NCBI GenBank assembly: GCA_963828165.1
Contig: CAWHDR010000001.1
Coordinates: 192,001 to 256,000, forward strand
From: an uncultured Chloroflexia bacterium
Lineage (GTDB): Bacteria; Chloroflexota; Limnocylindria; Limnocylindrales; CSP1-4
Length of the DNA stretch: 64,000 nucleotides
Direction of reading: 5' to 3'
Of the stretch, positions 281-63,895 are shown in pieces; positions within the stretch are counted from its first letter, which is position 1; each line of letters begins with the position of its first letter. The translations under genes and the position numbers were made by a program. The notes beneath the pieces are model-generated. The model did not search any database. It had not been told where the DNA came from and was given only the letters and a program-made list of their open reading frames with translations.

Positions 281-304
281 CAATCGTTTCTGGCAAGGTT
301 ACCA
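281..304. promoter_or_regulatory. Putative tandem LacI-type operator between the divergent P450 and dadA genes
   Basis: CAATCGTTTCTGGCAAGGTTACCA: two degenerate units 12 bp apart in a 61-bp divergent intergenic region. Confidence 0.45.
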
Positions 305-1851: not shown

Positions 1852-1870
1852 AGCCGACGAGGAGTGTGCA

Positions 1871-25648: not shown

Positions 25649-25717
25649 GAGTCAACAGCAGGCGTGCCGACGGCGAACGCCGGGGCCGAAGGACGCCCAC
25701 CAACACGGGAGGCTCGG

Positions 25718-30493: not shown

Positions 30494-30586
30494 GGCGTTC
30501 CCGGCCGTGCGTCGGAGAGAAGCCCGGGCGCCACTCGGAGGAGGAGAGCGGCGCCCGGGTTTGTGAAAACGGTGACGGTGGCGGCG

Positions 30587-38525: not shown

Positions 38526-38541
38526 CTGGTACCGATTGCAG
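38526..38541. promoter_or_regulatory. LacI-type operator in a divergent intergenic region
   Basis: CTGGTACCGATTGCAG. Its reverse complement nearly equals 58903-58918 (CTGCAATCGTTACCGA). Confidence 0.6.
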
Positions 38542-38610
38542 CCCGCCCTGCTACGATGCGATCCCGCTGCCATTCGACCCGATTCCGTCGGCCCAGGAGG
38601 TTGCCCGCAC

Positions 38611-39258
38611 ATGGATCGCGCGCTGTTCTACCTTCGCATCTTCCCGGGGACCGAAGCCGAGTACGACCGGCGGCACGCCGAGATCTGGCCGGAGCTCGTC
38701 GACGAGATCCGTGAGTCGGGGCTGCGCAACTTCTCCGGCTTCCGCCGCGGGACGGACGTCTGGTACTACACCGAGGCCGACGGCGATGTCGCCGACGCGT
38801 TCGCGGTGCACGGACCCAAGCCGGCCAACCAGCGCTGGAACCGCTACTTCCGCGATGTCATCGCCCAGATCACCGACGACAGCGGCAGCCTGCTCTGGTA
38901 CGACAAGGTCTTCGAATCCGATGGCCCGCGGCTGGATGGGACGTTCGAGCGAGGCCTGTTCGGTCTCGTGATCGATCCCGAGCGGGCGGACGACTACGAA
39001 GCGCTCCACGCGAACCCGTGGCCCGACCTCATGGAGGCGATCGAAGCGTCCGGCTTCCGCAAGTACCAGGGCTTCCGGCGCGGCGCCCACGTCGTCTACT
39101 ACGGCGAGTTCTATCCCGACATGAAGTCGGTCTTCGGGCGGATGGCCGAGCACGAGGTCAACGCGCGGTGGGGGACGGCGTTCGAGGGGATCATCACCAC
39201 GATCACCGACGCCGAGGGCAACCTCCTGACCGCGGACGAGATCTACCACCAGGACTGA
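38611..39258 (+). CDS. Tandem double-domain L-rhamnose mutarotase-like protein
   Basis: Two repeats: EYDRRHAEIWPEL..IRESGLRNFSGFRRG and DYEALHANPWPDL..IEASGFRKYQGFRRG. RBS AGGAGG. Confidence 0.82.
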   Translation: MDRALFYLRIFPGTEAEYDRRHAEIWPELVDEIRESGLRNFSGFRRGTDVWYYTEADGDVADAFAVHGPKPANQRWNRYFRDVIAQITDDSGSLLWYDKVFESDGPRLDGTFERGLFGLVIDPERADDYEALHANPWPDLMEAIEASGFRKYQGFRRGAHVVYYGEFYPDMKSVFGRMAEHEVNARWGTAFEGIITTITDAEGNLLTADEIYHQD

Positions 39259-39260
39259 CG

Positions 39261-48739: not shown

Positions 48740-49843
48740 ATGAGCAAGAACGGCGCCGTTCATCTGGTCGGCAGTGTCCCGCTCGAGAGCGTCGAGGACG
48801 TGTTTCGTACGTGCGCTGACGCCCTCGGAACGCGCGTCTCCTCCTATCCCGACGGGGAGGTCGGCCAACGGAAGTACTGGACCTTCTACCTTCCTACCCG
48901 AACGTATTCGGTCCACCCCGATCTGGAAGCGGTCAATGCGCCCCCAGACGGTCAGGTTCGACAGCCGACAGCGGGGGCGAGCCAGAAGGAATGGAACGAA
49001 TCGTGGTGGACCTTCAAGCTGCGGCCGGGCGTGAGCCACCTGACGTTCGAAAGCCTTCACTACGTCGAAGAAGCGACGCGATCCTACGAGATCTTTCGAA
49101 GGCTCCGCGCCGACGGCGTCATCCCGGTGGATGCCCGGTTCCAGGTGAGTTTTCCCGCCACTGGCTCGGCGGTGATGGGCTTTTTCGCGCGACCGGCGGA
49201 CTGGCCGACGGTCTATGACGCGTATCGGCGGGCGATCCGCCAAGAGGTGGCGCAGATCGTCACCTCGATCCCGCACGACGATCTGGTGATCCAATGGGAC
49301 ATCGCCAGCGAGGTCCGCGACATCCTGGCCGGCGACGCACCACTTCTGCCCTGGTCGCCGGAGACATCGCTCGAAGAGAAGTGGCAGCGCCATCTCGGTG
49401 ACATGGGCCACCTGTCCGCCGACATCCCGGAAGACGTCGTCCTTGGCTACCACTTCTGCTTCGGCACCTGGGGTGGCTGGCCGAAGTCCGTGGCGCCCGA
49501 CATGGGGGTCGCTGTCCGTCTCGCCAACGAAGCGGTCGCCCGGGCTGGACGTCGCGTCGACTACGTGCATCTGCCGGTGATGCCGGACGCCGACGATGCC
49601 TACTTCGGACCGATGCAGGGACTTGCGATCGGGAACACCTGGCCGTTCCTCGGGATCGTCCTCGACGACGGCTTGGACGCCTTCGAACGGCGTGCCCGAG
49701 CCGCGCAACGGTATGTGCCCGAATTCGGCATCGCGTCGTATTGCGGCTGGGGCCGCGAAGATCCCGCCCGAGTGCCATCGCTCCTGCGGAACCTTCGGGA
49801 GAGCGCCGAGCGCTTGACCAAGGTCTTGTCGCCCGTGTCGTGA
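48740..49843 (+). CDS. MetE/UROD-like barrel protein (cobalamin-independent methionine synthase C-domain-like, Zn motif)
   Basis: HLVGSVP, PDGE.G.R..W, IQWD, GYHFCFG (HxC), YVHLP and IASYCGWGR (third ligand Cys). Confidence 0.72.
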   Translation: MSKNGAVHLVGSVPLESVEDVFRTCADALGTRVSSYPDGEVGQRKYWTFYLPTRTYSVHPDLEAVNAPPDGQVRQPTAGASQKEWNESWWTFKLRPGVSHLTFESLHYVEEATRSYEIFRRLRADGVIPVDARFQVSFPATGSAVMGFFARPADWPTVYDAYRRAIRQEVAQIVTSIPHDDLVIQWDIASEVRDILAGDAPLLPWSPETSLEEKWQRHLGDMGHLSADIPEDVVLGYHFCFGTWGGWPKSVAPDMGVAVRLANEAVARAGRRVDYVHLPVMPDADDAYFGPMQGLAIGNTWPFLGIVLDDGLDAFERRARAAQRYVPEFGIASYCGWGREDPARVPSLLRNLRESAERLTKVLSPVS

Positions 49844-49873: not shown

Positions 49874-50896
49874 TCAGGGCAGGAGCACGCTCCTGAGGAC
49901 GCGCCCGGCTCGCAGGTCATCGAGTGCATCGTTGGCAGCATCAAGCGGACGCACTGCCTGGACCAGGTGGTCGACCGTGATCGTCCCGTCAAGATAGAGG
50001 TCGATGGCGTCGCGGATGTCGTCCGGCACAAACCCCCGCGACCCGAGGACGGCGAGCTCCCGCCAGAAGATGTCCACGGCTCGTGCCTGGAACGGATCGA
50101 CGCTCGCACCGATCAGTACGACCCGGCCGCCTGGACCGCCCATGGCGATGGCTTGCTCATCGACGGCCGCCGAGCCGACGCACTGGATGACGACATCCGG
50201 TCCGTGGCCACCTGTCAGGGCCTTCACGGCAGCGACCGGATCGCCATCGTCGGCGGCCACGGTCTCGTCCGCGCCGAGCTCACGGGCCAGCCGCAGCTTC
50301 GCCGCCGACCGTGTCACGGCGATGACTCGTGCCCCCATCGCCTTCCCGATCTGCACGGCATTGGATCCCAGGCCGCCCACACCAAGCACGACCAGGGTCT
50401 CGTCGGGCTGCAGCTTCGCGACTCGCTTGAGACCATGGAGCGGCGTGGCGACGGCGTCGGTCAGGACGGCCAACACGGGGGGCGGCACCGGGGCGCGCGG
50501 GACGATGAGTGCTTCCGGCGGGCGGAGAACGTACTCGGCGAACGCGCCATCGACGTCCACCCCCATGCGCGTCACGTGTGGGCTGATGTTCGGCCGCCCA
50601 CGGGCCGCCCACGGATCGTCGGCCGGCGTCGTGATGTAGTAGAGCGCGACCTGGTCCCCGACCGCCACGCCTTCGACCCCATCGCCGAGCGCATCCACCA
50701 CGCCGGCGGCCTCATGCCCGGGGATGACCGGCAACGAGACGGAGTCGCCGAAGCCGCCCTTCTGCAGGAACACGTCCGAGCCGCACACCCCGCACGCTTC
50801 CACCCGGACGCGAACCTCGCCGGCTCCGGGCTCCGGTATGGGCCGCGACGTCAGCCGAAGTGGCGCGCCGACCGCTGGCAGCTCCACCGCCCGCAT
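49874..50896 (-). CDS. Zn-dependent alcohol dehydrogenase (MDR) family protein
   Basis: ACGVCGSD, PGHEAAG, DAVATP, GVGGLG. Lacks the structural four-Cys Zn lobe. Confidence 0.88.
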   Translation of the reverse strand: MRAVELPAVGAPLRLTSRPIPEPGAGEVRVRVEACGVCGSDVFLQKGGFGDSVSLPVIPGHEAAGVVDALGDGVEGVAVGDQVALYYITTPADDPWAARGRPNISPHVTRMGVDVDGAFAEYVLRPPEALIVPRAPVPPPVLAVLTDAVATPLHGLKRVAKLQPDETLVVLGVGGLGSNAVQIGKAMGARVIAVTRSAAKLRLARELGADETVAADDGDPVAAVKALTGGHGPDVVIQCVGSAAVDEQAIAMGGPGGRVVLIGASVDPFQARAVDIFWRELAVLGSRGFVPDDIRDAIDLYLDGTITVDHLVQAVRPLDAANDALDDLRAGRVLRSVLLP

Positions 50897-50919
50897 CGTG
50901 GCCACCGCGATCCGGTCGC

Positions 50920-51687
50920 TCAATACATCAGGAATCCACCCGACACGTTGAGCGTCGAGCCGGTGATGTACTTGGCATGATCCGACGCGAGGAAGACGAC
51001 CGGGCCGGCCAGCTCCTCGGGCTCGGCCACGTAGCCGAGCGGCGTCTGCTTCTTCATCGATTCGTAGATCTCGGGAGCGAGGCCGGTCATGAGCATCGGC
51101 GTGTGGACCTGGCCCGGGGAGACGCAATTGACCGTGATCTGATGCGGCCCGAACGTCCGCGCGAGGCCGCGACACATCGTCGTGACGCCGCCCTTCGAAG
51201 ACGCGTAGGCGACCGAGCCACCGAAGCCGCCGGTCCACCAGCCCTGCGAGGTGAACAGGATGATCCGGCCACCCTGCTCCGCCTTGATCATCGCGTTGCC
51301 CGCGGCCCGGGCGAGGAAGAACGCCGACTTCACGTTGACGTCGTGCTGGAAGTCCCAGTCGTCCTCGGTGACCTCGTCGAGCGAGCCCCGGCGCCGGAGG
51401 ACGGCGGCGAGGTTCGCGAGGACGTACAGCCCACCGAGTTCCTTCTCCGCCCGCGCCACGAGCGCTTCGTGGCTGGCGAGATCGCTCAGGTCGGCGACCG
51501 CGGCCACGTGGCCGCTGCCGTCGAGCGAGCCGACCAGGTCGTCGAGTCGTGACTGATCCAGGTCCACGGCCATGACCTTCGCCCCTGCGCTGGCGAACCC
51601 CCTGGCCACGGCCGTCCCGATACCACCGGCGGCACCGGTCAGGATGACTCCGCGGCCCTCGAGCCCGGCGCCCACGCTCCACGTCAT
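50920..51687 (-). CDS. SDR family oxidoreductase
   Basis: TGAAGGIG, NLAA, YASSKGG. RBS GAGGAG. Confidence 0.9.
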   Translation of the reverse strand: MTWSVGAGLEGRGVILTGAAGGIGTAVARGFASAGAKVMAVDLDQSRLDDLVGSLDGSGHVAAVADLSDLASHEALVARAEKELGGLYVLANLAAVLRRRGSLDEVTEDDWDFQHDVNVKSAFFLARAAGNAMIKAEQGGRIILFTSQGWWTGGFGGSVAYASSKGGVTTMCRGLARTFGPHQITVNCVSPGQVHTPMLMTGLAPEIYESMKKQTPLGYVAEPEELAGPVVFLASDHAKYITGSTLNVSGGFLMY

Positions 51688-51736
51688 GTCGCTCCTCCTC
51701 TCCCCTGCCCCGCGCCACGCATCAGCGCCCGCGTCC

Positions 51737-52882
51737 TCACCCGCCGCCGAGCACCTTCTCGCTCCGGTATCGATCGACGACCTCCTGGCTGACGTCGATC
51801 CCGAGGCCCGGCTTCGTCGGCGGGTAGAACCAGCCATCCTTGTGCTCGATCGGCTCGGGCACGAGCTCGTGCTGCATCGGATTGCGGAGTGGCTTGACCT
51901 CGATCAGCTTGAAGGCCGGTGAGCTGAAGCTCATCGCCAGACTGGCCGCGGTGACGATGGCGGACGACCAGCAGTGGGCGTTCGCCTGGCGCCGGTAGAA
52001 CTCGATCCGTTCGACGGCGCGCTTGAAGCCGGTGATCCCCTCGGCTCGCCCGGGGTCGATGCCGACCACGTCGACCGTGCCGGTGCCGAGCACCCGCTCG
52101 AAGCCCTCCACGTTCCACTCCTTCTCGCCGTACGCGATCAGGCTCGTGGTCTTGCTGCGCAGGTTGGCGTAGCCCTCCGGATCCCACGCGCCGAGCGGTT
52201 CCTCGATCCAGTGGAGGCCGTACTCATCGAACGCCTGGACGCGCCGGACGGCCGTCATGACGTCCCATTTCACGTTCCACCCGCAGTCGATCATGATCAT
52301 CTGCTCGGGCCCAAGCCCCTCGCGCATCTTGCGGATGTACTCGACGTCCCGATCGTGCTCGTACCCGAGCCGGGCGTTGCCCCGCTTGCCGAAGCCGACC
52401 TTGAGGCCATGCATCCCGGGGGCGACCCATTCCTGGGCCTCTTCGACCATCCGGTCGATGTCCTCGTAGTGGGCATGGCTCGAGGCCACGGCCGGCAGCT
52501 TCTCGTGGACCGCGCCGCCCAGGAGCTGGACGACCGGTACCTCCAGGAGCTTGCCCTTGATATCCCAGAGCGCGATGTCGATCGCGGCGACGGCATAGCT
52601 CGCGATGCCGCCGTTGTAGCCGTACCACCACATCTGGTCACGAAGCGAGTGCCAGATCGCGATGTTGTCGAGCGGGTCCTTGCCGACCACCCGCTCCGCC
52701 ATGCCCTCGATGATCGCCTTGACCGCGAAGTTCGCCTCGGGGAACTGGGTGATGGACTCACCCCAGCCCACGACACCGTCGTCGGTCGTGATCTTGACGA
52801 GGCAGAGGTGCCGGAGCGCATCGTAGTCGTTCGGCTCCGGGTAGCTCACGGGGATGGCTTCGACCGTCTGGACCTTGCTCAC
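51737..52882 (-). CDS. Mandelate racemase / acid-sugar dehydratase family (paralogue of 29366)
   Basis: YPEPND, GWGE, AIDIALWDIKGK, WIEEP, YGEK, NAH, PMQHELV, PGLG. Confidence 0.9.
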   Translation of the reverse strand: MSKVQTVEAIPVSYPEPNDYDALRHLCLVKITTDDGVVGWGESITQFPEANFAVKAIIEGMAERVVGKDPLDNIAIWHSLRDQMWWYGYNGGIASYAVAAIDIALWDIKGKLLEVPVVQLLGGAVHEKLPAVASSHAHYEDIDRMVEEAQEWVAPGMHGLKVGFGKRGNARLGYEHDRDVEYIRKMREGLGPEQMIMIDCGWNVKWDVMTAVRRVQAFDEYGLHWIEEPLGAWDPEGYANLRSKTTSLIAYGEKEWNVEGFERVLGTGTVDVVGIDPGRAEGITGFKRAVERIEFYRRQANAHCWSSAIVTAASLAMSFSSPAFKLIEVKPLRNPMQHELVPEPIEHKDGWFYPPTKPGLGIDVSQEVVDRYRSEKVLGGG

Positions 52883-53041
52883 GAGGGACAGGCTCCTTTC
52901 GGGAGGATGGCTGGGCGATCGACCCGCCGAGCGGGCCCTCCTTGCCCGGCCGATACAGCACGGGACAGCGGCTCGGCACGCCCGAGCACCACGGTTTCGA
53001 CCGGCTGGGACAGGTTGCAGATCCAAGCGTGAATCGCGTCT

Positions 53042-53105
53042 GATATCATTTCCAGACTCGTTTCCACCCGACGGTCATCGTAGGGTCGCCCTTCTCCTGC
53101 GTCAA
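53042..53105 (-). promoter_or_regulatory. Promoter plus tandem operator
   Basis: Minus-strand TTGACG(53105-53100)-N17-TACGAT(53082-53077). ATCATTTCCAGA/CTCGTTTCCACC 12-bp direct repeat at 53045-53068. Confidence 0.55.
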
Positions 53106-53150: not shown

Positions 53151-54218
53151 ATGGCGAAGCTCCGCCTCGGCGTCATCGGTGCCGGGTCGTGGACGCTTGG
53201 TTCCCACTTGCCGAATCTGGCCAAGCACCGGGACGAGGTCGAGTTCGTCATCGTCAACCGGCGCAATCCGGACCTGCTCTCCAAGATCCAGTCGGAATGG
53301 GGCTTCGCCAAGTCCTCGACGGACTGGCATGACGTCATCGCCGAGAAGCCGGACATCGTCGTGATCGGGAGCCCACCCGGTTACCACTGGGAGCAGAGCA
53401 AGGCCGCGCTCGAGGCCGGTGCGCAGGTCATGTGCGAGAAGCCCTTCACGATCGACCCGGCGCATGCCTGGGACCTCGACGAGACCACCCGTCGGACGGG
53501 GAACCACCTGATCCTGTCCTACGGCTGGAACTACCGGCCGATGGTCATCGACGCGCACCGGATGATGCACGAGGATGGTGGCGTCGGCGAGATCGAGCAC
53601 GTCGCGCTGCACATGGACTCCGTGACCCGGGAGCTGCTGTCCGAGACGGGCGACTACCCCGGCGCCTCGCCCGAATCCATCCCCCAGCCGGACACGTGGT
53701 CGCGTCCCGAGACATCCGGTGGTGGCTACGGGCAGGCCCAGCTGACCCACCTGCTCGGCGTCTCGCTCTGGCTGACCGAACTGCGCGGCCAGGACGTGTT
53801 CGCATTCATGTCCGCTCCACTGGACGCCAAGGTGGAGCTCCACGACGCGGTCTCGATCCGGTACACGAATGGCGCGATCGGCACGATGAGTGGCGCGTCG
53901 AGCCACCTCGGCGGCGCGAACAACCGTCATGCCGTGGAGGTCCGCGTGGTCGGCTCGAAGGGCATGTTCCACCTCGATCTGCGCGACAACGTCCTGTGGC
54001 GCTATCGCTCGCCGGCGGACGACGTCCGCGTCCCACTCGAATCCGACGCCGGCCTGTACGACTGCACGGGACCGATCGAGGCGCTCGTGGCGGCCGGCGC
54101 CGGCCGGCCGTTCGACAACAATTCACCGGCCGAGCTCGGTGCCCGGACCGTCGAGATCCTCGAGGCCGCGTACCGCAGCGCGGGCAGTGGGGCTGCGGAG
54201 CGGGTGAAGACGCTGTGA
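53151..54218 (+). CDS. Gfo/Idh/MocA family oxidoreductase
   Basis: GVIGAGSW, CEKP, TWSRPETSGGGYGQAQLTH. Confidence 0.9.
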   Translation: MAKLRLGVIGAGSWTLGSHLPNLAKHRDEVEFVIVNRRNPDLLSKIQSEWGFAKSSTDWHDVIAEKPDIVVIGSPPGYHWEQSKAALEAGAQVMCEKPFTIDPAHAWDLDETTRRTGNHLILSYGWNYRPMVIDAHRMMHEDGGVGEIEHVALHMDSVTRELLSETGDYPGASPESIPQPDTWSRPETSGGGYGQAQLTHLLGVSLWLTELRGQDVFAFMSAPLDAKVELHDAVSIRYTNGAIGTMSGASSHLGGANNRHAVEVRVVGSKGMFHLDLRDNVLWRYRSPADDVRVPLESDAGLYDCTGPIEALVAAGAGRPFDNNSPAELGARTVEILEAAYRSAGSGAAERVKTL

Positions 54219-54266
54219 TGATCCCTCCCGCCAGGTCAACGAACCAGAACGTCATGGAGTGTCGCG

Positions 54267-55376
54267 ATGCTCGCTGAAGTCACCAGCCCGCTCAAGGGCG
54301 AATGGATGACGCCTCGACGGCGCTTCCTCTCGGCTGTCTATCGCGGCAACGTCGACAAGGTGCCGGCCTGTACGCTCAGCTCGGTCGTGACGGTCGAGAT
54401 GATGGACCTGGTCAATGCGCCCTTCCCCGAGGCGCACCTGGACGCCGAGCTCATGGCCAGGCTCGCGGCGACCGCGCACGACGTGTTCGGGATGGACACG
54501 ATCATGCCGGTCTTCCATTCCCAGCTCGAATCGGATGCGCTCGGCGGCGAGACCGAGTGGGCCGAGAAGGACAACTGGCCATCGCCGTCGCGGTTCACGA
54601 TCGAGGAGCCTGACCAGGTCAAGATCCCCGACGACTTCGTCGAGCGGCCGACCATGGCCGCGGTCACCGGCGCGATCAAGCTGCTCCGCCATCGCTACCC
54701 GGACGTCGCCATCGTCGGCAAGGTCTACGGCCCGTGGTCGGTCGGCTACCAGATGGTCGGCATCGAGAGCTTCCTGATGGACGTCATGCTCGATCCGGAC
54801 AAGATCAAGCGCTACCTGGACGCGTTCGTGCCGGCCTGCATCGCCTCCGCCCAGGCGCAGTTCGAGGCGGGTGCCGATGCCGTGATGTGGGCCGACCACA
54901 CGACCGGCGACCTGTGTCGTGCCGAGACCTACCGCGACTTCCTGCTGGAGATGCACCAGCACATCACCCAGGAGATGGGCGGGCCCGGCATCTTCCACTG
55001 CTGCGGCAAGACCATCGACCGGGTGCACCTCTTCGCCGCGGCCGGCTGGGATGTCTTCCACTTCGAGTCCCAGGTCGACGCCCGCGAGGCCCGCGAGATG
55101 GCCGGCGAGCGCATGGCGCTGATGGGCAACCTCAACAACCCGACGCTGCTCTGGCAGGGCACGCCCGAGGAGGTCTACAAGGCGTGCTGGGACCTCATGG
55201 ATGCCGGCGTCGACGGGCTCGCGCCTGAGGGCTCGGTCCCGCTCGTGACCAAGAAGGAGCCGCTGATGGCGATCGCCCACGCGGCCCGCGACTGGTCGGC
55301 ACTGCATCGTGGCGACGACGGCGTCGTCCATCGCCCCGACCCATCCACCAGCACGTATCCCGGCTACCCGGGCTAG
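54267..55376 (+). CDS. MtaA/CmuA (UROD-fold) corrinoid methyltransferase
   Basis: MTPRRRFL, FPEAHLDAELMARLA, GKVYGPW, AQFEAGAD, IFHCCG, LMGNL, GTPEEV. Confidence 0.85.
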   Translation: MLAEVTSPLKGEWMTPRRRFLSAVYRGNVDKVPACTLSSVVTVEMMDLVNAPFPEAHLDAELMARLAATAHDVFGMDTIMPVFHSQLESDALGGETEWAEKDNWPSPSRFTIEEPDQVKIPDDFVERPTMAAVTGAIKLLRHRYPDVAIVGKVYGPWSVGYQMVGIESFLMDVMLDPDKIKRYLDAFVPACIASAQAQFEAGADAVMWADHTTGDLCRAETYRDFLLEMHQHITQEMGGPGIFHCCGKTIDRVHLFAAAGWDVFHFESQVDAREAREMAGERMALMGNLNNPTLLWQGTPEEVYKACWDLMDAGVDGLAPEGSVPLVTKKEPLMAIAHAARDWSALHRGDDGVVHRPDPSTSTYPGYPG

Positions 55377-55412
55377 GCCACAAGAACCAGAGACGTAGGA
55401 GAACCACGGAGC

Positions 55413-56075
55413 ATGGCGGACCTGAAGCGACTCCAGACGGCTGTCGAGGTCGGCGACCGCGAGACCGCGGTCGAGGTGACCCAGCAGGCGATCGACGAGG
55501 AGATCCCTCCGAAGACCGTGCTCGATGCGATGACCGACGCGATGGGGGTCGTCGGTCAACGCTTCCAGGACAACGAGATCTACGTCCCCGAGATGCTGAT
55601 CAGCGCCCGGGCCATGAAAGCGGCCGTCGCGCTCCTGGAGCCGCTGCTCATCGGCTCGGGCTACAAGCCGGACAGCGTCGCCGTCATGGGCACGATCAAG
55701 GGCGATCTCCACGACATCGGCAAGAACCTCGTCGGGATGATGCTCAAGGGCGCGAACTTCGAGATCTTCGACCTGGGCACCAACGTCTCGGTCGACAAGT
55801 TCATGGCCGCCGCACGCGAGCACAAGGCGGACATCATCGGGATCAGCGCCCTGCTGACGACGACCATGGGCGGCATGCGCGGCGTGATCGAGGCCGTCCG
55901 TGCCGCGGACGACCTGCCGAACCTCCCGGTCATGGTCGGCGGCGCGGCGGTGACCAAGGAGTTCGCCGAGCAGATCGGCGCCGACGGCTGGGCGCCGGAC
56001 GCCGGCTCCGCGGTCATCCTCGCCCGGCGCCTCGTCGCCGAGGCACGCGCGGCGCGAGCCGACAACGTCGCCTGA
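55413..56075 (+). CDS. Corrinoid (B12-binding) protein
   Basis: B12 cap domain, YVPEMLISARAMK, GDLHDIGKNLV (DxHxxG), SALLTTTM, VMVGGA. Confidence 0.93.
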   Translation: MADLKRLQTAVEVGDRETAVEVTQQAIDEEIPPKTVLDAMTDAMGVVGQRFQDNEIYVPEMLISARAMKAAVALLEPLLIGSGYKPDSVAVMGTIKGDLHDIGKNLVGMMLKGANFEIFDLGTNVSVDKFMAAAREHKADIIGISALLTTTMGGMRGVIEAVRAADDLPNLPVMVGGAAVTKEFAEQIGADGWAPDAGSAVILARRLVAEARAARADNVA

Positions 56076-56083
56076 CGGGACGG

Positions 56084-57154
56084 CTAGGGCGCGGGCGACC
56101 CCACGGATGGCGCCGGCGTTGCCGCCGGCAGGCGCCCGGCCCGGAACGCATCGATGAACTCCACCCCGAAGGCGTCGACGCCGGTCAGGAGATCCGCGGC
56201 CAGTCGGTAGGACTCGGCCTCGCGGTCCGGCGCCAGCGCGCTGCGGATGTCGGCCGCGACCGGGTCGACGATCCCGCTGTCCTGGCCCGCCACCACGCAC
56301 AGGTCGAGGAAGACGTCGCTGATGAGCCGGCGCGCCGGCATCCCGAACGACACGTTGGACACGCCGCTGGTGATGTGGAGCTCCGGTCCGTAGCGGGCGC
56401 GTAGCTGGCGGACGGCCTCGAGGTAGGCGGACCCGCCATCCGGGTCGACACCGATCGGGATGACCAGCGGGTCCACGTGCAGCGCGGCGAGGTCGAGACC
56501 GTGGGCGACTGCCATCTCGATCAGCTCGACCGCGCGGACCATTCGCTCCTCGGTGCCGGTCGGCATCGTCGCCCCCGTCGAGGACAGCACGACCGGCGAG
56601 CCACGATCAGCCGCCATCCCAAGGACGTCGACTCTGTCGGCCGCTGCCGAGTTCAGCATCGGTGGAGCCCCGCCGGCCCAGCCCGGGTCCAGGAGCTCGA
56701 GCCCGACGGTCATCACCGACGAGTCGGACGAGTCGATGGAGAGTGGGACGCTCGACACCGGGCCGACCGCCCGGACGAGCCAGGCCATGGCCTCGAGGCG
56801 ACCGTCGACATCGGGTGAGACCTCGTCGACGTTGATGTCGAGATAGGCCGCGCCGCCGGCGATCTGGCGAGCTGCCATCCAGCGCACATACGCGGTGGCG
56901 ATCGCGGCATCGGGGCCGTTGGCCATCCCCTCCAGCACGGCGGCCATCACGTGCTTGACACGGCCAGACTGGAATTCGCGCGTGTCCTGGATGACCGGCG
57001 GGACCGGCAGCAGGGCCTCGCCGTCCTCGAGCGGGACCCGGACGGCCGGCTGGCCCGACGGTGTCTCGGCGATCCGGCTACCGTCGCGGCGGACGACCCG
57101 GCTCGTGTGGATGTTCTCGCCGATGATGATGAACGGCACTGGCGGGACGGACAA
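56084..57154 (-). CDS. Methyltetrahydrofolate:corrinoid methyltransferase (pterin-binding, AcsE-like)
   Basis: FIIIGENI, GAAYLDIN, PLSIDS, MLNS, VDPLVIP, SGVSNVSFGMP.R. TTG start after GGAGGA. Confidence 0.85.
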   Translation of the reverse strand: MSVPPVPFIIIGENIHTSRVVRRDGSRIAETPSGQPAVRVPLEDGEALLPVPPVIQDTREFQSGRVKHVMAAVLEGMANGPDAAIATAYVRWMAARQIAGGAAYLDINVDEVSPDVDGRLEAMAWLVRAVGPVSSVPLSIDSSDSSVMTVGLELLDPGWAGGAPPMLNSAAADRVDVLGMAADRGSPVVLSSTGATMPTGTEERMVRAVELIEMAVAHGLDLAALHVDPLVIPIGVDPDGGSAYLEAVRQLRARYGPELHITSGVSNVSFGMPARRLISDVFLDLCVVAGQDSGIVDPVAADIRSALAPDREAESYRLAADLLTGVDAFGVEFIDAFRAGRLPAATPAPSVGSPAP

Positions 57155-57188
57155 CGAGCGATCCTCCAAGTCGGTAACGGGCGCCGCG

Positions 57189-58800
57189 TCAGGCGGCGAT
57201 GGGCACGAATCGGCAGCCGTCGACGAACAATTCGAAGAAGTCGTCCTCGGTCTCCAGCTCGACGTGCTCGATCCGCCCGACGAGCGCGTCGAGAGCGTCG
57301 CGCCGGCTCCTGGACAGCAGCAGGCCGGCGGCGCCATGGAGCGCCGCGTTGCCGACGCGGACCACGCGATCGACGGGGACCGGCGCGAGCAGGCCGATCT
57401 CGATCGCGTTCTGCACGTTCACGGCGTTGGCGAACCCGCCCGCGAGATAGACCCGGTCGACCTGGTCGGCGGTCACCCCCAGGCGGCGGAGCAGGATCCG
57501 CTGGCCACAGGCGTTCGCGGCCTTGGCCTGTGCGAGCAGGCTCGCGTCCGACCGCGAGAACGTGATGCCCTGCTCAGGCGCGACGAGAAACTCGTCCAGG
57601 TCGTCACGGAACCGACCCTCTTCGTTCATCCAGCGCGCGCGCCGGAGTTCGGCCAGGACGTCGACGAGTCCCGAACCGCAGATGCCGACCGGGTCGACGT
57701 CCCCGATCGTGCCCAGCGTGAATGCCTCACCCTCGAGTTGGATCGTTTCGATGGCCCCGTCGGCGCCCGACATCCCGAAGCGCAGCAGGCCGCCCTCGAA
57801 CGCCGGGCCGGCCGGGCACGAGGCCGCCAGGAAGCGCGTCCCGTCGGTCACCACGACTTCGGTGTTCGTGCCGATGTCGATGAGCATCCGGATGCCCTGG
57901 CCCGTGGCGAACTCGACCGCGACGAGGTCGGCCGCGGTATCGCCGCCGACGTGACTGGCGATGACCGGGGCACCGACCACGCGGCCATGGGGGTTCATGA
58001 GCAACCCGACCTCGTGGCCGCGCCGCCGGACCCAGGTCGAGTCGCTCTGGCCGGCGAGCATCGCGACTTCCGTGATCGACTTGTACGGGAACTCGCCGAT
58101 CGGCCCGATGTCGATGCCGAAGAACAGGTCGCGCATCGTGCTGTTGGCGACGATGATCGCCTCGTAGACCTCGTGTCGGTCGATCCCGTGCTCCCGGTAC
58201 AGGTCGCGCAAGGCGTGGTTGAGCGCGCGGCGAACGGCCAGCCGCATCGCGCCCGGGAAATCCTTCTCGTAGGAGATGCGGGTCATCACGTCGCTGCCGC
58301 CGAAGCGCTGCGGGTTCTCGAGGGCGCCGCCCGCGACGGCTGCGCCGGTCAGCAGGTCGATGATCCGGAAGACGACCGTCGTCGTGCCGATGTCGATCGC
58401 CAGCCCGAGCACATGGTTCCGCCGGAGCCCGATGGGCTGGCCCGCATAGAACACCGCCGTGTCGTCCGCGGTGACGACGGGGTCCAGCCGGGTGGCCGGC
58501 GCTTCCATCGATTCGAGGATGCGCATCCGCCGGCGGATGATGGCGAAGTCGATGTCGGTCGTCGCGGTCTCGATCGTGGCCTGGCAGGCGAGACGGAAGC
58601 CGCCCTTCAGATACGCCTCCGGCAGCGTCCGCGGCGAGAGACCTTCGAACCCCTGGCGGACCTCGACCACGCACTCTCGGCAGCGACCGGTCCGGCGACA
58701 CGATTGCGGGCACCGCCGACGACACCTCGTCGGCGTAGTCGAACAGCGTCCGCCCGACGACAAGCGGACGGTGCTCGATCCCCTGGATGACTTCAGGCAA
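57189..58800 (-). CDS. Reductive activator of corrinoid proteins (RACo/ASKHA ATPase with N-terminal 2Fe-2S domain; frameshift near 58709)
   Basis: CRRTGRCREC...RLACQ, IDIGTT, NPQ.FG.DV..RI, DIGTNTE, AGPAFEG, GICGSG. The N-terminus (GRTLFDYADEV..VP) lies in another frame across a GGG run. Confidence 0.87.
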
Positions 58801-58890
58801 GCTGGCGGACCTCGGGTGGCACTGTCGACTGACCGGCGCCGTTTGTCGCCGGCCGTCGATCGCTGTGTGCGCGGCGACGACTATCCCACG

Positions 58891-58918
58891 CTGGTAGCGG
58901 TTCTGCAATCGTTACCGA
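58891..58918. promoter_or_regulatory. Tandem LacI-type operator upstream of RACo
   Basis: CTGGTAGCGGTTCTGCAATCGTTACCGA, CG centres 12 bp apart. Confidence 0.55.
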
Positions 58919-58971
58919 CGGGGTCGGCCCGTCTGGAGCCGGCGCGGGGCTGCGCCAGGGCTCCGCAGCGA

Positions 58972-60015
58972 TCAGCCGGCGTGTGGGACCGGGCCGCAGC
59001 TCGGGCGGGGCGTAAAGGTCGTCGGAAGCAGGACGGTGCGCGGTTCGCCCCCGCCCAGCCGCTCCAGCAGGAGCTCGGCGGCCGTGCGGCCCAGCAGCAG
59101 GGTGTCGCGCGCGACCGACGCGATCGGCGGGTCATGCAGCTCCGACAGGTCGACTTCATCGCAGGTCACCAGCGAGATGTCGGTCGGGATCTTCACGCCG
59201 TGCCGGACCAGCGCACGCACGCAGCCGGCGAGGACCTGGTTGCCGCCCGCGACGATGGCGGTCGGTCGCGGGTCCATCGTCAGCAGCTGCTCGGTCGATG
59301 CCTCGCCGTGCTCCGCGGACAACGATCCAGCCAGGGTGATGGTCTCGTCGCGGATGCCTTTGGCGGCAACGGCATCGGCCATGCCGGCGATCCGTTCGCG
59401 AACGGGCCACAGGTCGAGAGGGCCGGTGATGAGCGCGATCCGGCGGTGTCCGAGATCAAGCAGGTGCTCGACCGCGGCTCGCATCCCCGTCTTGTGATCG
59501 TTGCGCACGATGCTCGCCCGCAGATCGCCGGGGACGTCTCGGTCGATCATGATGATCGGGACGTCGACCTGGGTCAGGACGTCGAGGGTCCCCGAGCGCC
59601 GTTCGCTCGCGAGGGACAGGATCATGCCGTCGACACGCCGCGCCTGGAAGAACCGGATGTGGGCGGCGTCGAGCTCGGGGTCGTTCTCGGAATTCATCAG
59701 GAGCATCGAGTAGCCCGCCGAGCGGAGCGCGGACTCGGCACCCGACGTGATGGTGGCGATCAGCGGGTTCGAGATGTCGCCGACCACGTACCCGACGGAC
59801 AGGGTGGCGCCGCGACGCAGGCTCTGGGCCAGGAAGTCCGGCTCGTACTCCAGCTCCTGTACGGCGGCCAGGACGCGCTCGCGCATCTCGAGGCTGACAT
59901 CCGGATGCTCCGAGAGGACGCGGGAGACCGACGAGATCGCGACGTCGGCCAACTCGGCGACCTCGCGCATGCTGGCCCGCTTACGCCGGAGGTCCATCCG
60001 CCTGCCATCGTTCAT
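58972..60015 (-). CDS. LacI family transcriptional regulator
   Basis: SMREVAELADVAISSVSRV HTH, YEPDFLAQSL. Paralogous to the 16526 regulator. Confidence 0.93.
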   Translation of the reverse strand: MNDGRRMDLRRKRASMREVAELADVAISSVSRVLSEHPDVSLEMRERVLAAVQELEYEPDFLAQSLRRGATLSVGYVVGDISNPLIATITSGAESALRSAGYSMLLMNSENDPELDAAHIRFFQARRVDGMILSLASERRSGTLDVLTQVDVPIIMIDRDVPGDLRASIVRNDHKTGMRAAVEHLLDLGHRRIALITGPLDLWPVRERIAGMADAVAAKGIRDETITLAGSLSAEHGEASTEQLLTMDPRPTAIVAGGNQVLAGCVRALVRHGVKIPTDISLVTCDEVDLSELHDPPIASVARDTLLLGRTAAELLLERLGGGEPRTVLLPTTFTPRPSCGPVPHAG

Positions 60016-60072
60016 CCACGATCCCTCCCGTCGCGTCGTTGACCCGTCGCCGAGCGCGGTCGGGCGGCGGAT

Positions 60073-60214
60073 TCGTCGTTCCAGTAACGGTTTCAGCGAC
60101 GGTAGCATAGCCAGCGTTGCCGTGCTGTTCCGTTCCCGCCCCAGGGATCGCCCGTGATTGACGATTCCGCGGCCCGGATGCCACGATGTGTAAACGAAAC
60201 TGGAAACGGTACCG
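60073..60214. promoter_or_regulatory. Divergent promoter region with two operator clusters
   Basis: TCGTCGTTCCAGTAACGGTTTCAG (60073), TTGACG(60158)-N18-CACGAT(60182), and GTAAACGAAACTGGAAACGGTACCG (60190-60214). Confidence 0.6.
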
Positions 60215-60277: not shown

Positions 60278-61243
60278 ATGACCGCCACTTCCACCCCAGA
60301 TCGGCTCGACTGGTACCGGACGATGCTCCGGATCCGGCTCTTCGAGGAGAAGGTCCAGGAGCTGTTCATGACCGGGCAGATCCAGGGAACCACCCACCTC
60401 TGCCAGGGTCAGGAAGCCGTCTCCGTCGGCGCGATCGCGGCGATGCAGCCCGGCGACGTGCAGACCAACACGTACCGCGGCCACGGCGAGGCGCTGGCTC
60501 TTGGCATGGACCCGGAAGTGGCTTTTGCCGAACTCATGGGGCGGCGGACCGGCGGCTCCGGCGGCGTCGGCGGGTCGATGCACCTGATCGACTTCAGCAA
60601 GGGCAACATCGGCGCGAACGCCATCGTCGGGGCCGGGCTGCCGATCGCGGTCGGCGCAGCGGTCGCCTTCCAGATGCAGAAGAAGCCCAACGTCGCGCTC
60701 TCGTTCTTCGGGGACGGCGCGACGAACATCGGGACGTTTCACGAGGCCCTGAACATGGCCGCGGTCTGGACGGCCCCGGTCGTGTTCATCATCACCAACA
60801 ACCTGTACGGCGAGTACAGCCCGCTGCGGGCGACGACTCCCCTGGACGACCTGGCCCGGCGCGCCGATCCGTTCGGCATGCCCGGGATCATCGTCGACGG
60901 CCAGGACATCGACGCGGTGCACAGCGCGACGGTCGAGGCCGTCGAGCGGGCGCGCGGCGGTGAGGGGCCCAGCCTCCTCGAGATGAAGACGTATCGCTAC
61001 CGCGGCCACAGCCGGTCCGACCCCGCGAAGTACCGACCGGAGGGCGAGCTCGATCGCTGGAAGGCACGCGACCCGATCGAGCTTCTGGGCGCGCTGCTGG
61101 TGGCGGAGTCGATCATCGGACCGAACGACGCCGGCGAGATCCGGACCGAGACCCAGGCCGAGATCGATGCCGCCGCCGAGCGAGCGGCGAGTGCCCCCTT
61201 CCCCACCCTGGAGGAGACGCGACCCTATGTCTACGCTGAGTGA
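60278..61243 (+). CDS. TPP-dependent 2-oxoacid/acetoin dehydrogenase E1 alpha subunit
   Basis: GTTHL..GQEA, TYRGHG, GGSMH, FGDGA...NN TPP motif, TYRYRGHS. Confidence 0.92.
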   Translation: MTATSTPDRLDWYRTMLRIRLFEEKVQELFMTGQIQGTTHLCQGQEAVSVGAIAAMQPGDVQTNTYRGHGEALALGMDPEVAFAELMGRRTGGSGGVGGSMHLIDFSKGNIGANAIVGAGLPIAVGAAVAFQMQKKPNVALSFFGDGATNIGTFHEALNMAAVWTAPVVFIITNNLYGEYSPLRATTPLDDLARRADPFGMPGIIVDGQDIDAVHSATVEAVERARGGEGPSLLEMKTYRYRGHSRSDPAKYRPEGELDRWKARDPIELLGALLVAESIIGPNDAGEIRTETQAEIDAAAERAASAPFPTLEETRPYVYAE

Positions 61244-62243
61244 GGCGGCGCCGGCGGAGACCGGGAGCACGACCGAGCTGACCTACCGCGAGGCGATCAA
61301 CGCCGCGCTCGACGATGCGATGGCGGCGGATGACGCGGTCCTGCTCATGGGCGAGGACGTGTCCGCCGATGGCGGCGTCTTCAAGACCAACATCGGGCTG
61401 TCCGAGAAGTACGGGCTCGAGCGTGTCCGGAACACGCCGATCTGCGAGAACGGGTTCCTCGGCGTTGCCCTTGGCATGAGCCTCGTCGGGATGCGACCCG
61501 TCGTGGAGATCATGTTCGCCGACTTCCTGCCGACGGCCGGGGACGCCATCGTCAACCAGCTCCCGAAGTACCGGTACATGTCCGGTGGCCAGACATCGGT
61601 GCCGGTGACGGTCCGATCCGTCAGCGGCGCAACCGGGCGCTTCGGCACCCAGCATTCGGCGACCGGCGAGAGCTGGTTCATGCACCTGCCAGGCCTCCGG
61701 GTCGTGACCGCCTCGTCGCCCGGGTCGGCCTACAGCCTGCTCCGGGCCGCCATCGACGATCCGAACCCGACGCTGTTCTACGAGCACAAGGGCCTGTACG
61801 CGCGCAAGGGGCCGGTGGTCCGCGGCGAGATCGCGGAGATCGGGAAGGCGCAGGTCGTCCGCCCGGGCAGCGACGTCACGATCGTGACGACGCTCCTGAT
61901 GGTCGAGCGCAGCCTGGCGGCGGCCGAGCAGCTGGCGGAGGATGGCATCGACGCCGAGGTCATCGACCTGCGCTGGCTCCGTCCGCTCGATCTCCCGGCG
62001 GTCCGAGCCTCGGTCGAGAAGACCGGTCGGATCGTCGTCGCCGAAGAGCAGGTCCATGCCGCCGGCTGGGGCGCGACGATCGTGAGCGAGCTGACCATCG
62101 GCGGGGTCGAATGGGCCAGCGCGCCTCGCCGCGTGAGCTTGCCCGACGACCTGCCGATCCCATACACCCCGCCACTCGAGGACGAGGTCCTGCCGTCGAC
62201 CGAATCGATCGCCGCGGCGGCCCGGGCCAGCGTCGGGCGTTGA
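61227..62243 (+). CDS. TPP-dependent 2-oxoacid/acetoin dehydrogenase E1 beta subunit
   Basis: MGEDV, NTPICE, PVVEIMFADF, QHS, EHK, IDLR.L.PLD. Confidence 0.92.
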   Translation: MSTLSEAAPAETGSTTELTYREAINAALDDAMAADDAVLLMGEDVSADGGVFKTNIGLSEKYGLERVRNTPICENGFLGVALGMSLVGMRPVVEIMFADFLPTAGDAIVNQLPKYRYMSGGQTSVPVTVRSVSGATGRFGTQHSATGESWFMHLPGLRVVTASSPGSAYSLLRAAIDDPNPTLFYEHKGLYARKGPVVRGEIAEIGKAQVVRPGSDVTIVTTLLMVERSLAAAEQLAEDGIDAEVIDLRWLRPLDLPAVRASVEKTGRIVVAEEQVHAAGWGATIVSELTIGGVEWASAPRRVSLPDDLPIPYTPPLEDEVLPSTESIAAAARASVGR

Positions 62244-63428
62244 GCGAAGCCCCGAGCGCATCGGTCGCGCCGCGGACGCTCGACCGGAACGCGCTCATCG
62301 TCGACCGGATCGAGACCGTCGCACTTCGTGCGCCGCTCGGTCGACGGTTCTCGGGCAGCGCCTACAGCATGGACAACCGGTGCACGATCGTGACTCGGCT
62401 GCACACCCACGACGGCCTGGTGTCGGAGGTGTACACCGGCGATACCGACGTCGAGCAATCCATCATCGTCGCGATCATCCATGACGAGCTGGCGCCCCGC
62501 TTGCTGGGACGAACGGCGACCGATCCCGAGGGCGCGTGGCGAGCCATGGAACCCGCCACCAACGACATCCTGCGCGATCGGGGCCTGGCGTTGCAGGCGA
62601 TCTCGTGTGTCGATGAAGCCATCTGGGACGTCTTCGGACGGGCCATCGGCCTGCCACTGCACCGCATCTGGGGGAGCACCGGCGACACCGTCCCGATCAG
62701 CATCATCGGCGGCTATTACCACCTGTCGATCGACGAGATGGCCGAGGTCATCCAGGGCTATGTCGAGGCCGGGTTCGCGGGCATGAAATTCAAGGTGGGT
62801 GGTCGCACTCCGGCGGAGGATGCCGCCCGCGTGCGTGCGGCTCGGGGGGCGGCGGGCCCGGACTTCGCGCTGATGGTCGACGCCAACCAGGGCTACGACC
62901 GTGCGCAGGCGGTGAAGTTCGCCCAGCTCGTGTGGGACCTCGACATCCGCTGGTTCGAGGAGCCATGCCGCTGGACGAACGACGCCCGCTGGATGCGCGA
63001 TGTCCGGTACCAGACGGCCATCCCGGTGTGCGCCGGACAGAGCGAGACGACCCTCGTCGGCATCCGCGACCTCATCGTCGGCGGCGCCATCGACGTCTCC
63101 AACTTCGATGCCTCCTGGGCAGGCGGCCCCACGATCTGGCGCAAGGCAGCCGGCCTCGCTGCCGCGTTCGGGGTCGAGCTCGGACACCACGAGGAACCGC
63201 AGATCGCGTCGCACCTGCTGGCCAGCGTGCCCGAACCACACGTTCGTCGAGTGCTTCGACGAGGAGCGCGACCCGTTCTTCTGGCGCCTCACGGACATGT
63301 CGACGCGGATCCGGGACGGGGGCTACACGCTGCCGGACCGCCCCGGGTTCGGCATCGAGCTCGATATGGATTACGTACGACGCCACACCGTCGCGACGCG
63401 GTCGACCGACCGCCACAGCCTCACGTAG
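62240..63428 (+). CDS. Mandelate racemase / muconate lactonising family enzyme (frameshift near 63231)
   Basis: KFKVG, MVDANQG, WFEEP, AGQSE, GHHEE. The C-terminus PNHTFVECF...PDRPGFG is in the 63000..63428 frame. TTG start overlaps the E1-beta stop. Confidence 0.85.
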
Positions 63429-63439
63429 GAGGGACGCCG

Positions 63440-63895
63440 ATGGCGGCCGTCACCGGGTTCTTCCACGGCGGGATCACCGTCAGCGACATGGAGCGCGCCC
63501 TGGTCTTCTACCGCGATGGATTGGGCCTGGAACAGGAATTCGACCGGATCCTCGACGCGCCGTACCTGCCCGCGGTGCTGGGTCTCGAGTTCGACCACAT
63601 CCGGGCCGTCTACCTCCGGATCCCCGGCGGCGGCTTCGTGGAGCTGCTCGAGTACGTCGGCATCGAACGGATGTCCGCTGCGTCGCGACCATGCGATTAC
63701 GGGGCGGGCCACCTGTGTCTCTACGTGGACGACGTCGAGGCGATGCACGCGCGGCTGGTGAAGCTTGGGTTCGCGGCCCGCTCGGAACACGTCGTCGATA
63801 TCACGGCGGGTCCCAACCAGGGTGCGCGCAGCTGCTACATGGCCGATGCCGACGGGTATGCCGTCGAGCTGTTCCAGAAGCGCCCCGGAGGCTGA
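63440..63895 (+). CDS. VOC (glyoxalase-like) family protein
   Basis: Own RBS AGGAGG. HGGITVSD, VELLEY, GHLCL, D.DG..VELFQ. Paralogue of 28850. Confidence 0.87.
   Translation: MAAVTGFFHGGITVSDMERALVFYRDGLGLEQEFDRILDAPYLPAVLGLEFDHIRAVYLRIPGGGFVELLEYVGIERMSAASRPCDYGAGHLCLYVDDVEAMHARLVKLGFAARSEHVVDITAGPNQGARSCYMADADGYAVELFQKRPGG

Follow-up and report, generated by a model that had tools for sequence, protein, structure and literature searches.

What does a complete cobalamin-dependent methyl-transfer module do among the sugar-type catabolic genes of an oxygen-respiring bacterium? The question was raised by a stretch of 64,000 nucleotides from an uncultured Chloroflexia genome (positions 192,001 to 256,000 of contig CAWHDR010000001.1, assembly GCA_963828165.1), here called the window. 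Genes for a Gfo/Idh/MocA-family dehydrogenase (Gfo), a methyltransferase (MT1) and a corrinoid protein lie on its plus strand and face genes for a LacI-family repressor (LacI), a reductive activase (RACo) and a second methyltransferase (MT2) on the minus strand. Plant, algal and microbial matter commonly contains sugars and cyclitols that bear methyl ethers. Sugar methyl ethers block ordinary sugar pathways (PMC6292453). We consider it quite possible, if somewhat short of probable, that the module is a LacI-controlled, four-component, cobalamin-dependent system that demethylates a methylated carbohydrate-like donor and passes the methyl group to tetrahydrofolate (THF).

The module and the metal site of MT1

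Genes were picked by third-position G+C (window G+C ~69%) and named with Pfam and NCBIfam. The gene set is a complete corrinoid methyl-transfer module of MT1, corrinoid protein, THF methyltransferase and RACo, and each of these four components has a solved relative. The plus and minus arms end 8 bp apart. A preliminary description made from the sequence had claimed both the convergent layout and the complete set, and both were confirmed by the family matches and the solved relatives, the order in the minus arm being RACo and then MT2.

The plus arm begins with Gfo (53151–54218), a NAD(P) oxidoreductase with GFO_IDH_MocA N- and C-domains. It fell below every NCBIfam equivalog cut-off (best, iolG, 58.7 bits versus 355), and its nearest solved chains were sugar or cyclitol ring dehydrogenases, every E-value being weak. 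MT1 (54267–55376, plus strand) is a URO-D-fold methyltransferase of the MtaA/CmuA family (PF01208, 7e-55; TIGR01463 mtaA_cmuA, 236.1 bits, cut-off 235.4) with an HCCG...EG metal motif. The corrinoid (cobalamin-binding) carrier protein (55413–56075, plus strand) has B12-binding_2 (PF02607) and B12-binding (PF02310) domains, and its closest solved chain was Moorella 1y80 (7.9e-46), with 4jgi also matched. Its translation contains DLHDIG, which fits the DxHxxG pattern; D98, H100 and G103 were invariant in the alignment of corrinoid proteins. MT2 (56084–57178, minus strand, start 57178 inferred) is a pterin-binding methyl-corrinoid:THF methyltransferase (Pterin_bind, PF00809) that matched PRK07535, methyl-THF:corrinoid methyltransferase (8.5e-49). 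Its closest solved chain was the Desulfitobacterium hafniense O-demethylase MT II (4o0q/4o1e, 2.2e-28). RACo (57189–58800, minus strand) is an ATP-dependent reductive activase with Raco_middle and RACo_C_ter domains (57189–58763; AcsV-type, 4.6e-79), closest to 3zyy (1.4e-64). The longest LacI frame covers 58972–60108 on the minus strand; its helix-turn-helix lies at residues 46–91, which puts the likely true start close to 59985.

RACo has its [2Fe-2S] N-terminus in a different frame from the remainder of the protein, the break lying at about 58708–58712. When intact RACo of relatives was used in tblastn, residues 1–31 matched 58800–58708 and residue 31 onward matched 58709–57192 in another frame. 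RACo is a single open frame of 536–571 aa in relatives L001, L002, L004 and L022. The window DNA reads CCC at the break and the relatives' reading implies CC (read off the DNA), that is, one extra base. The middle and ASKHA domains are in frame; the ferredoxin part (58800–58708) is present, out of frame in the assembly and intact in relatives. The frameshift is either an assembly error or a real break. Among public sequencing runs none contained more than 14% of the words of 57900–59300, and no RNA run was listed as containing them. A real break would mean that the module of this genome is decaying, the system being dead unless the genome's second RACo substitutes, which we regard as distinctly improbable. 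The extra base does split the ferredoxin domain from frames that are intact in the four relatives, and the gene of a Cys-rich protein at 30486–31703 likewise has an out-of-frame-looking C-terminus. Against decay, the break falls in a short C run, and single-base indels are frequent errors in genomes assembled, like this one, into very long contigs; the remaining RACo is 96% identical to that of L002 over 506 residues, the other module genes are all open, and a second RACo of 723 aa is encoded at 1.02 Mb of contig C1 of the same genome.

MtaA 4ay7 was the closest solved relative of MT1 (7.8e-46), and phmmer against all PDB chains found only MtaA and true UroD enzymes. At E ≤ 0.001, 1063 of 8000 scored candidates were relatives of MT1, every label being hypothetical or MtaA-like. 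The alignment with MtaA spanned the whole barrel. His-x-Cys was kept (HICG in MtaA; HCCG in MT1, with His244 and Cys246), and the Cys of the MtaA PGCG motif was aligned with Gly322 of MT1 (PEGS). Given the presumed zinc ligands of MtaA, MT1 departs from the zinc pattern of coenzyme M (CoM) methyltransferases, His-x-Cys...Cys, the third Cys being replaced by Gly322. Window MT1 and its 120 best database matches were screened for both motifs: 89 of these 121 sequences had HCCG and EG, 17 had H-x-CG and EC, and 15 lacked one or both. HCCG with EG was found in 19/20 close Chloroflexota loci, 8/8 other Chloroflexota-group loci and 37/37 Acidimicrobiia loci; HICG with EC was found in 11/12 anaerobe homologs. 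A quick maximum-likelihood tree of 78 rows split the HCCG/EG clade (66 rows) from the anaerobe rows (SH-aLRT 100) and divided it into a Chloroflexota-type group (29 rows, 98), including L019, whose record labels it Acidobacteriota, and Acidimicrobiia (37 rows, 98). In a plasmid collection, which may lack a cmuA plasmid, tblastn of MT1 gave weak URO-D-type matches only (7 records, all <60% identity).

Aryl O-demethylases (D. hafniense Dhaf4610-4612, Acetobacterium dehalogenans Odm and Vdm, Moorella Mtv) follow the same logic of MT I, corrinoid protein, MT II to THF and ATP-dependent activase. The module had been assigned the architecture of acetogen O-demethylases. The component logic and the match of MT2 to 4o0q uphold this, as do the matches of the corrinoid protein to Moorella 1y80 and to 4jgi, whereas among solved proteins MT1 is closest to methanogen MtaA, whose lineage is reported to be apart from OdmB and VdmB. 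For the aryl O-demethylase MT I clade (OdmB, VdmB, MtvB and MtoB, with CdmB nearby) the separation is that of published lineages: the preprint PMC10418091 reports the MtaA-type lineage apart from OdmB and VdmB (~17% identity for its own query protein), and PMC13222342 likewise places it apart from aryl O-demethylases. The module differs from the aryl systems further in its oxygen-respiring host, its two convergent arms and its LacI-type sites, and no aromatic-degradation genes were seen among the Pfam-named genes of the window. The CoM methyltransferases (Methanosarcina MtaA 4ay7/4ay8, MtbA, MtsA, MtpA) belong to the same family as MT1 (PRK06252, 240.1 bits versus 244). MT1 fell below their equivalog cut-offs (MtaA_Meth, 214.9 versus 400 bits; MtbA, 166.9 versus 600), has lost the PGCG Cys, carries an extra Cys after the His (HCCG), and is partnered by a THF methyltransferase instead of CoM chemistry.

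The MtgBCD(E)/RamA/DUF1638 systems of Ruegeria pomeroyi and Phaeobacter inhibens, likewise combine a corrinoid protein, a pterin-binding methyltransferase and a RamA/RACo-type activase in an aerobe, and they share DUF1638 and a paralog of methylenetetrahydrofolate reductase (MTHFR) with loci of the module's relatives. Their substrate side is an MttB-family protein or a homocysteine-binding domain, whereas here it is MtaA-like; a separate MttB-type cluster of the Mtg kind lies at 1.02 Mb of C1 in the window's genome (G000). Type 1 mlp clusters (Kountz and Balskus, PMC10418091) have 2–3 MtaA-like paralogs, a corrinoid protein and RACo, no THF methyltransferase, and obligate anaerobes as hosts. 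Assignment to this type was rejected: G000 has a single MT1, MT2 is present and the host has a haem-copper oxidase. A P450 demethylates 6-O-methyl-D-galactose in marine Flavobacteriia (PMC6292453) and sits in sugar-use loci with a zinc alcohol dehydrogenase (Zn-ADH) near (PMC10033563). That enzyme differs from the module in that it needs oxygen, releases formaldehyde and uses no cobalamin. A literature search for a cobalamin-dependent sugar demethylase found none, the P450 route being the sole sugar O-demethylation found. New in the module are the MtaA-like MT1 with a relocated Cys, the aerobic host and the LacI wiring into a sugar-type island.

Operator-like sites, the island and related loci

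Four related 26-nt sites match the pattern GGTAnCGnTTnCAGnnnCGnTAC. O1 (53041–53066, plus strand; matrix score 36.1) lies in the 124-bp spacer between an MR_MLE dehydratase gene on the minus strand and Gfo on the plus strand, O2 (58892–58917, minus strand) in the spacer between the LacI end and the RACo start, and O3 (60082–60107, plus strand) and O4 (60189–60214, minus strand) in the divergent region between LacI and E1-alpha. A position-weight matrix built from the four sites scored them 30.7–36.5 and ten shuffles ≤16.4, a comparison that is circular for those four. Independent support came from operator-like sites at the corresponding places in 10/10 close relatives scanned. The O1 26-mer was identical at the same place in nine of these and had 2 changes in the tenth. 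The DNA upstream of RACo is just 74–85% identical among relatives, yet the sites are kept. A similar site precedes RACo in the more distant L022, another directly precedes the orphan MT1 of L024, and a third precedes a CoA-transferase gene 9 kb beyond the window end. The claim that operators stand in front of both arms was borne out by this conservation, and the module is predicted, through these conserved LacI-type sites, to be co-regulated with neighbouring sugar-type catabolic genes.

The half-site GGTAnCGnTTnCAG occurs in 8 copies genome-wide, 6 of them within C1:185.9–264.8 kb. Two island copies lie at 31746, upstream of a Cys-rich gene, and at 38528, upstream of a mutarotase/isomerase-like/P450 operon. 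A wider island regulon taking in the P450 would have the half-site only to point to it. The placement of P450s in one regulon with the module was not upheld: the P450 operon has a mere half-site upstream, and the co-occurrence of P450 and module in the genus indicates inheritance of the island, not a shared regulon. A weaker operator-like site (279–304, minus strand, score 21.5) was seen between a P450 gene that overruns the window start and a DAO-family oxidoreductase gene.

Among 36 genus members, MT1 and the orthologs of Gfo and MR_MLE were found in the same 7. The P450 was found in 6/7 MT1 carriers and 0/29 non-carriers, and E1-alpha in 6/7 carriers and 2 other members. The operon divergent from Gfo (49874–53026, minus strand) encodes an enolase-superfamily dehydratase (51737–53026), a short-chain dehydrogenase (SDR; 50920–51837, longest frame) and a Zn-ADH (49874–50899), for which the PDB search returned generic alcohol dehydrogenases only. 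Divergent from LacI, thiamine pyrophosphate-dependent E1-alpha and E1-beta and an MR_MLE-glyoxalase fusion are encoded at 60278–63895 (plus strand). E1-alpha, E1-beta, MR_MLE2 and the CoA-transferase accompany MT1 in L022, in L024 (orphan MT1) and in the window's genome. Also encoded in the window are several monosaccharide ABC systems of CUT2 type, together with SDRs, Gfo paralogs, hydrolases of lactonase type and dehydratases of the enolase superfamily. Cyclitols had been named beside sugars in the preliminary description; nothing in the window points specifically to them. The iol genes are not in the window: IolD and IolB are on contig C5, and IolE-like matches there were below cut-off. With the iol genes elsewhere and Gfo below the iolG cut-off of 355 bits, the locus departs from the moc/iol pattern, in which a MocA/IolG-type dehydrogenase is accompanied by IolE, IolD and IolB or by MocC, MocD and MocE; no Rieske oxygenase was seen among the Pfam-named genes of the window.

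Related loci were compared in a close-relative set (21 loci) and an Acidimicrobiia set (37 loci). The closest loci are from soil Chloroflexota (Candidatus Limnocylindria or Limnocylindrales). Gfo lies directly upstream of MT1 in 18/21 close loci; L013 and L017 end too near MT1 for this to be judged, and L059 has a broken assembly. RACo and MT2 are present in 17/21, the other 4 stopping at the contig end. The core cassette recurs in Chloroflexota and in sponge Acidimicrobiia. In earlier-branching loci of the Chloroflexota group, MT1, corrinoid protein and DUF1638 share one strand and lie opposite MT2 and RACo, in some cases with MTHFR as well. DUF1638 lies between corrinoid protein and MT2 in 8 Chloroflexota-group loci (L004, L018, L019, L020, L022, L026, L028 and L069), and MTHFR between MT2 and RACo in the basal L022 and L026, with FolD near in L026. 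Three loci (L023–L025) have MT1 alone.

In Acidimicrobiia, MT1 and the corrinoid protein are followed by a ~110-aa protein without a Pfam match and then by RACo and MT2. RACo and MT2 were found in 34/37 of these loci, the rest stopping at contig ends. The ~110-aa protein (e.g. L061:11978–12319) was found in 37/37 Acidimicrobiia loci and 0/43 other loci, and not in G000. Three contexts were seen around the Acidimicrobiia cassette: (A) an M24/creatinase-like protein, amidohydrolases and a nucleotidase in ~15 loci; (B) an isomerase-like protein, a Cys-rich protein, Zn-ADH, a phosphotriesterase (PTE)-type hydrolase, SDR and a cupin; and (C) a rhodanese, an FAD oxidoreductase and NhaA in ~8 loci. 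In context B, Zn-ADH lies beside the cassette in 10/37 loci, part of them also with the PTE-type hydrolase, SDR, isomerase-like and Cys-rich proteins, and these loci are scattered over three or more parts of the MT1 tree. For each of the five neighbours the best homolog in G000 (52–66% identity) falls inside the 64-kb window: isomerase-like protein (39285–40691, 53%), Cys-rich protein (30651–31703, 66%; paralogs at 25808 and 1877), PTE (12651–13574, 52%), Zn-ADH (52%) and SDR (55%). The names 'Spongiisocius' and 'Spongiisociaceae' did not occur in the literature searched. The synteny check proposed in the preliminary description gave a divided result, the cassette and its sites being kept in close relatives and the Gfo link being limited to one derived Chloroflexota subclade.

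Methyl donor and direction of transfer

In the reading that we prefer, MT1, MtaA-like and probably a zinc enzyme, would demethylate a small catabolite and load the methyl group on the corrinoid protein in its Co(I) form, and MT2 would hand it on to THF; we infer this direction, like the zinc site, for the module as a whole. RACo would use ATP and an electron from its [2Fe-2S] cluster to return oxidised Co(II) to Co(I). The most likely donor would be methylated and carbohydrate-like, namely an O-methyl sugar, sugar acid or cyclitol; CUT2-type ABC transporters encoded nearby would import it, and neighbouring dehydrogenases, lactonases and dehydratases would break it down further. The Gfo dehydrogenase, presumably co-transcribed, would act on substrate or product. 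This substrate class is our best-supported guess, taken from context, and should be read as tentative. A demethylase for a methylated sugar or cyclitol had been proposed before. The complete module, the predicted co-regulation with the sugar island and the precedent of cobalamin-dependent demethylation that feeds THF in aerobes (PMC12478193) speak for it; the affinity of MT1 to MtaA, the restriction of the Gfo link to a subclade and the unlike Acidimicrobiia contexts do not. The in-cluster MTHFR of L022 and L026 fits methyl oxidation after demethylation; Ruegeria has an analogous MetF2 (PMC12478193).

The window's genome (3.3 Mb, 6 contigs, 88% complete) encodes a haem-copper oxidase and a single copy of MT1. 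Its MetH is full-length and includes an activation domain, and a homocysteine methyltransferase domain also occurs fused to MTHFR. About 4 kb from MetH and the fusion, at C1:1,021,000–1,028,000 (L081, 11134–18754), lies a further complete corrinoid system, of MttB type; it consists of an MttB-family and a pterin-binding methyltransferase, the 723-aa RACo, a corrinoid protein and a divergently encoded IclR regulator. Five Acidimicrobiia genomes (G455–G459) were reached through loci L031, L040, L049, L061 and L035. Full-length MetH was not found in 5/5 of them, PF02574 occurring only in frames of 311–379 aa, and MetE was missing in 3/5. All five have a second corrinoid protein next to a second pterin-binding protein, together with a stand-alone homocysteine-binding domain. 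This set looks like a Phaeobacter-type split methionine synthase. The second corrinoid/pterin pair thus makes a separate split methionine synthase available in Acidimicrobiia, and the B12 module is an additional system there. A split methionine synthase as the main role of the module was weakened by MetH in G000 and by these separate pairs, both of which speak against the module being simply a methionine synthase.

Several results weigh against a carbohydrate-like donor or against the module as a working unit of the island. No characterised ortholog of MT1 is known, and MtaA, the nearest solved protein, transfers methyl groups to a thiol (CoM) and is not an ether-cleaving enzyme. On the MT1 tree Gfo is missing from each of the seven Chloroflexota-group rows that diverge earlier than the Gfo-linked set, so the Gfo linkage is, on this tree, derived and confined to one Chloroflexota subclade. 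The Acidimicrobiia cassette stands in three unlike contexts, of which A and C are not sugar-like. The co-occurrence in the genus extends to a P450 13–28 kb away and reflects inheritance of the whole accessory island, not specific coupling; as the island is inherited as one block, it does not single out Gfo. LacI is a predicted partner of the operator-like sites and would answer to a putative effector, and RACo has a broken reading frame in the assembly. A search of G000, at 88% completeness, did not find CobD/CbiB, so cobalamin may have to be imported.

An S-methyl compound (methylmercaptopropionate, methanethiol, dimethylsulfide, or a methylthio-sugar or methylthio-acid) would make MT1 an enzyme like methanogen MtsA or MtpA that sends the methyl group to THF, and we consider this unlikely though worth keeping in view. 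MT1 falls in the MtaA/CmuA family with MtaA as its sole close solved relative (7.8e-46), and the known substrate-side members of the MtaA lineage use thioethers. Sponge hosts are rich in compounds derived from dimethylsulfoniopropionate. Two kinds of neighbourhood lean the same way: a two-domain rhodanese lies divergently upstream of MT1 in ~8 Acidimicrobiia loci, and a Desulfosporosinus homolog, 50% identical to MT1, adjoins a major facilitator superfamily transporter, MT2 and a corrinoid protein, a layout that we take to resemble mtpCAP. MtpA itself is described in 10.1101/548461. Set against an S-methyl donor is the metal site, in which the C-terminal Cys aligned with the thiol-type third zinc ligand is gone (EC to EG in 64/65 clade sequences from loci), and the wiring of the window clade's module to LacI sites and sugar-type genes, with no sulfur-handling gene seen in the window. 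Alternatively, the cassette would be a context-independent scavenger of a small one-carbon donor, for instance methanol or a methyl halide, and would sit in the sugar island by inheritance without functional coupling. The four-gene core is the sole part kept across all contexts, basal Chloroflexota loci have THF-side partners only (MTHFR, FolD, DUF1638), the family model bears the name MtaA/CmuA, MT1 enzymes of URO-D fold can be specific for halomethanes (PMC13222342), and within the genus the island is present or absent as a unit together with its P450. We nevertheless rate such a scavenger as improbable: operator-like sites before both arms are kept where the flanking non-coding DNA is just 74–85% identical, the orphan MT1 of L024 has its own site, no MtaB-type methanol activator was seen in the window, and no match at E ≤ 1e-5 to a cmuA-bearing plasmid was found in the plasmid collection, which may not include that plasmid.

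Flow in the opposite direction, from CH3-THF through the corrinoid protein and MT1 to an acceptor, would turn the module into a dismantled MetH that makes methionine or another methyl-thioether or methyl-ether. Its four parts correspond to those of MetH, module by module. Aerobic bacteria have split methionine synthases that come with a RamA-like activase and DUF1638, and a dual glycine betaine demethylase/methionine synthase has a bidirectional pterin module (10.1101/192971; PMC12478193). DUF1638 recurs between corrinoid protein and MT2 in the 8 Chloroflexota-group loci, and full-length MetH was found in 0/5 Acidimicrobiia genomes. This direction has a low probability in our estimate, given the full-length MetH of G000 with its own activation domain, the separate corrinoid/pterin pair that can serve the stand-alone homocysteine domain in 5/5 Acidimicrobiia genomes, the accessory distribution of the module (7/36 genus members) and its position behind a LacI-type repressor among import and breakdown genes.

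Demethylation of a carbohydrate-like donor remains the reading that we prefer for the window, and it could extend to the clade. With the help of cobalamin, the HCCG/EG clade as a whole would then demethylate aliphatic methyl ethers, whether O-methyl sugars, sugar acids or O-methyl inositols (pinitol, for example), in soil Chloroflexota and sponge Acidimicrobiia that respire oxygen, a generalisation that we hold to be doubtful. The altered metal site of the clade would serve as the Lewis acid for the ether oxygen, with the methyl group kept as CH3-THF and not given off as formaldehyde. If true, there would be a second, oxygen-independent route of sugar demethylation beside the P450 route, one that keeps the methyl carbon in the folate pool; the dependence of carbon turnover on B12 would be extended to abundant aerobic soil Chloroflexota and sponge symbionts, and a new ether-cleaving biocatalyst would be at hand. 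Whatever the substrate, the large uncharacterised HCCG/EG clade (89/121 screened) has a distinctive change of metal site and is testable through a defined predicted set of repressor and operators.

Other genes of the island

More than one P450 had been placed in the island's regulon. Just one lies inside the window (40697–42004); the second, a paralog, straddles the window start. The former closes an apparent operon (38536–42004, plus strand) that encodes a double RhaM-type mutarotase and an isomerase-like protein of ~470 aa, the P450 starting 3 bp after the latter. The L040 homolog of the isomerase-like protein gave a weak Arabinose_Iso_C match. A P450 in a sugar-type operon recalls the known sugar O-demethylating P450, and no specific likeness was found. 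Against the PDB, the P450 at 40697–42004 gave generic P450 matches only, none of the best 60 listed being named as a sugar demethylase.

The protein encoded at 48740–49843 (plus strand) had no Pfam or NCBIfam match, and a PDB profile search by sequence found nothing. Its predicted fold (pLDDT 93.8) resembles the C-terminal zinc TIM barrel of cobalamin-independent methionine synthase (MetE), with H238-x-C240 invariant and C335 nearly so. On this model it might be a second methyltransferase of the system. An ortholog lies directly 3' of the corrinoid protein gene in L027; 12 loci of distant homologs in other Chloroflexota were without corrinoid genes, and hhalign against the MT1 family gave 6% probability.

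An uncharacterised Cys-rich family of ~371 aa has three paralogs in the window (30486–31703, minus strand; 25664–26854 and 1790–2998, plus strand), and in sponge Acidimicrobiia its members adjoin the B12 cassette. The N-domain is helical, and C238, C280, C283, C286 and C323 were invariant in the family alignment. The structure predicted for 30651–31703 (mean pLDDT 87.5) gave no Foldseek match at E ≤ 0.001 and, in VIA-align wide, four-helix-bundle rows only (Z ~8, the noise of helical models); in Atlas the family was found in unnamed clusters only. In frame 30486–31703 the C-terminal ~55 residues (30486–30650) are Arg/Pro-rich and unlike the 371-aa homologs, which suggests a second single-base indel in the assembly.

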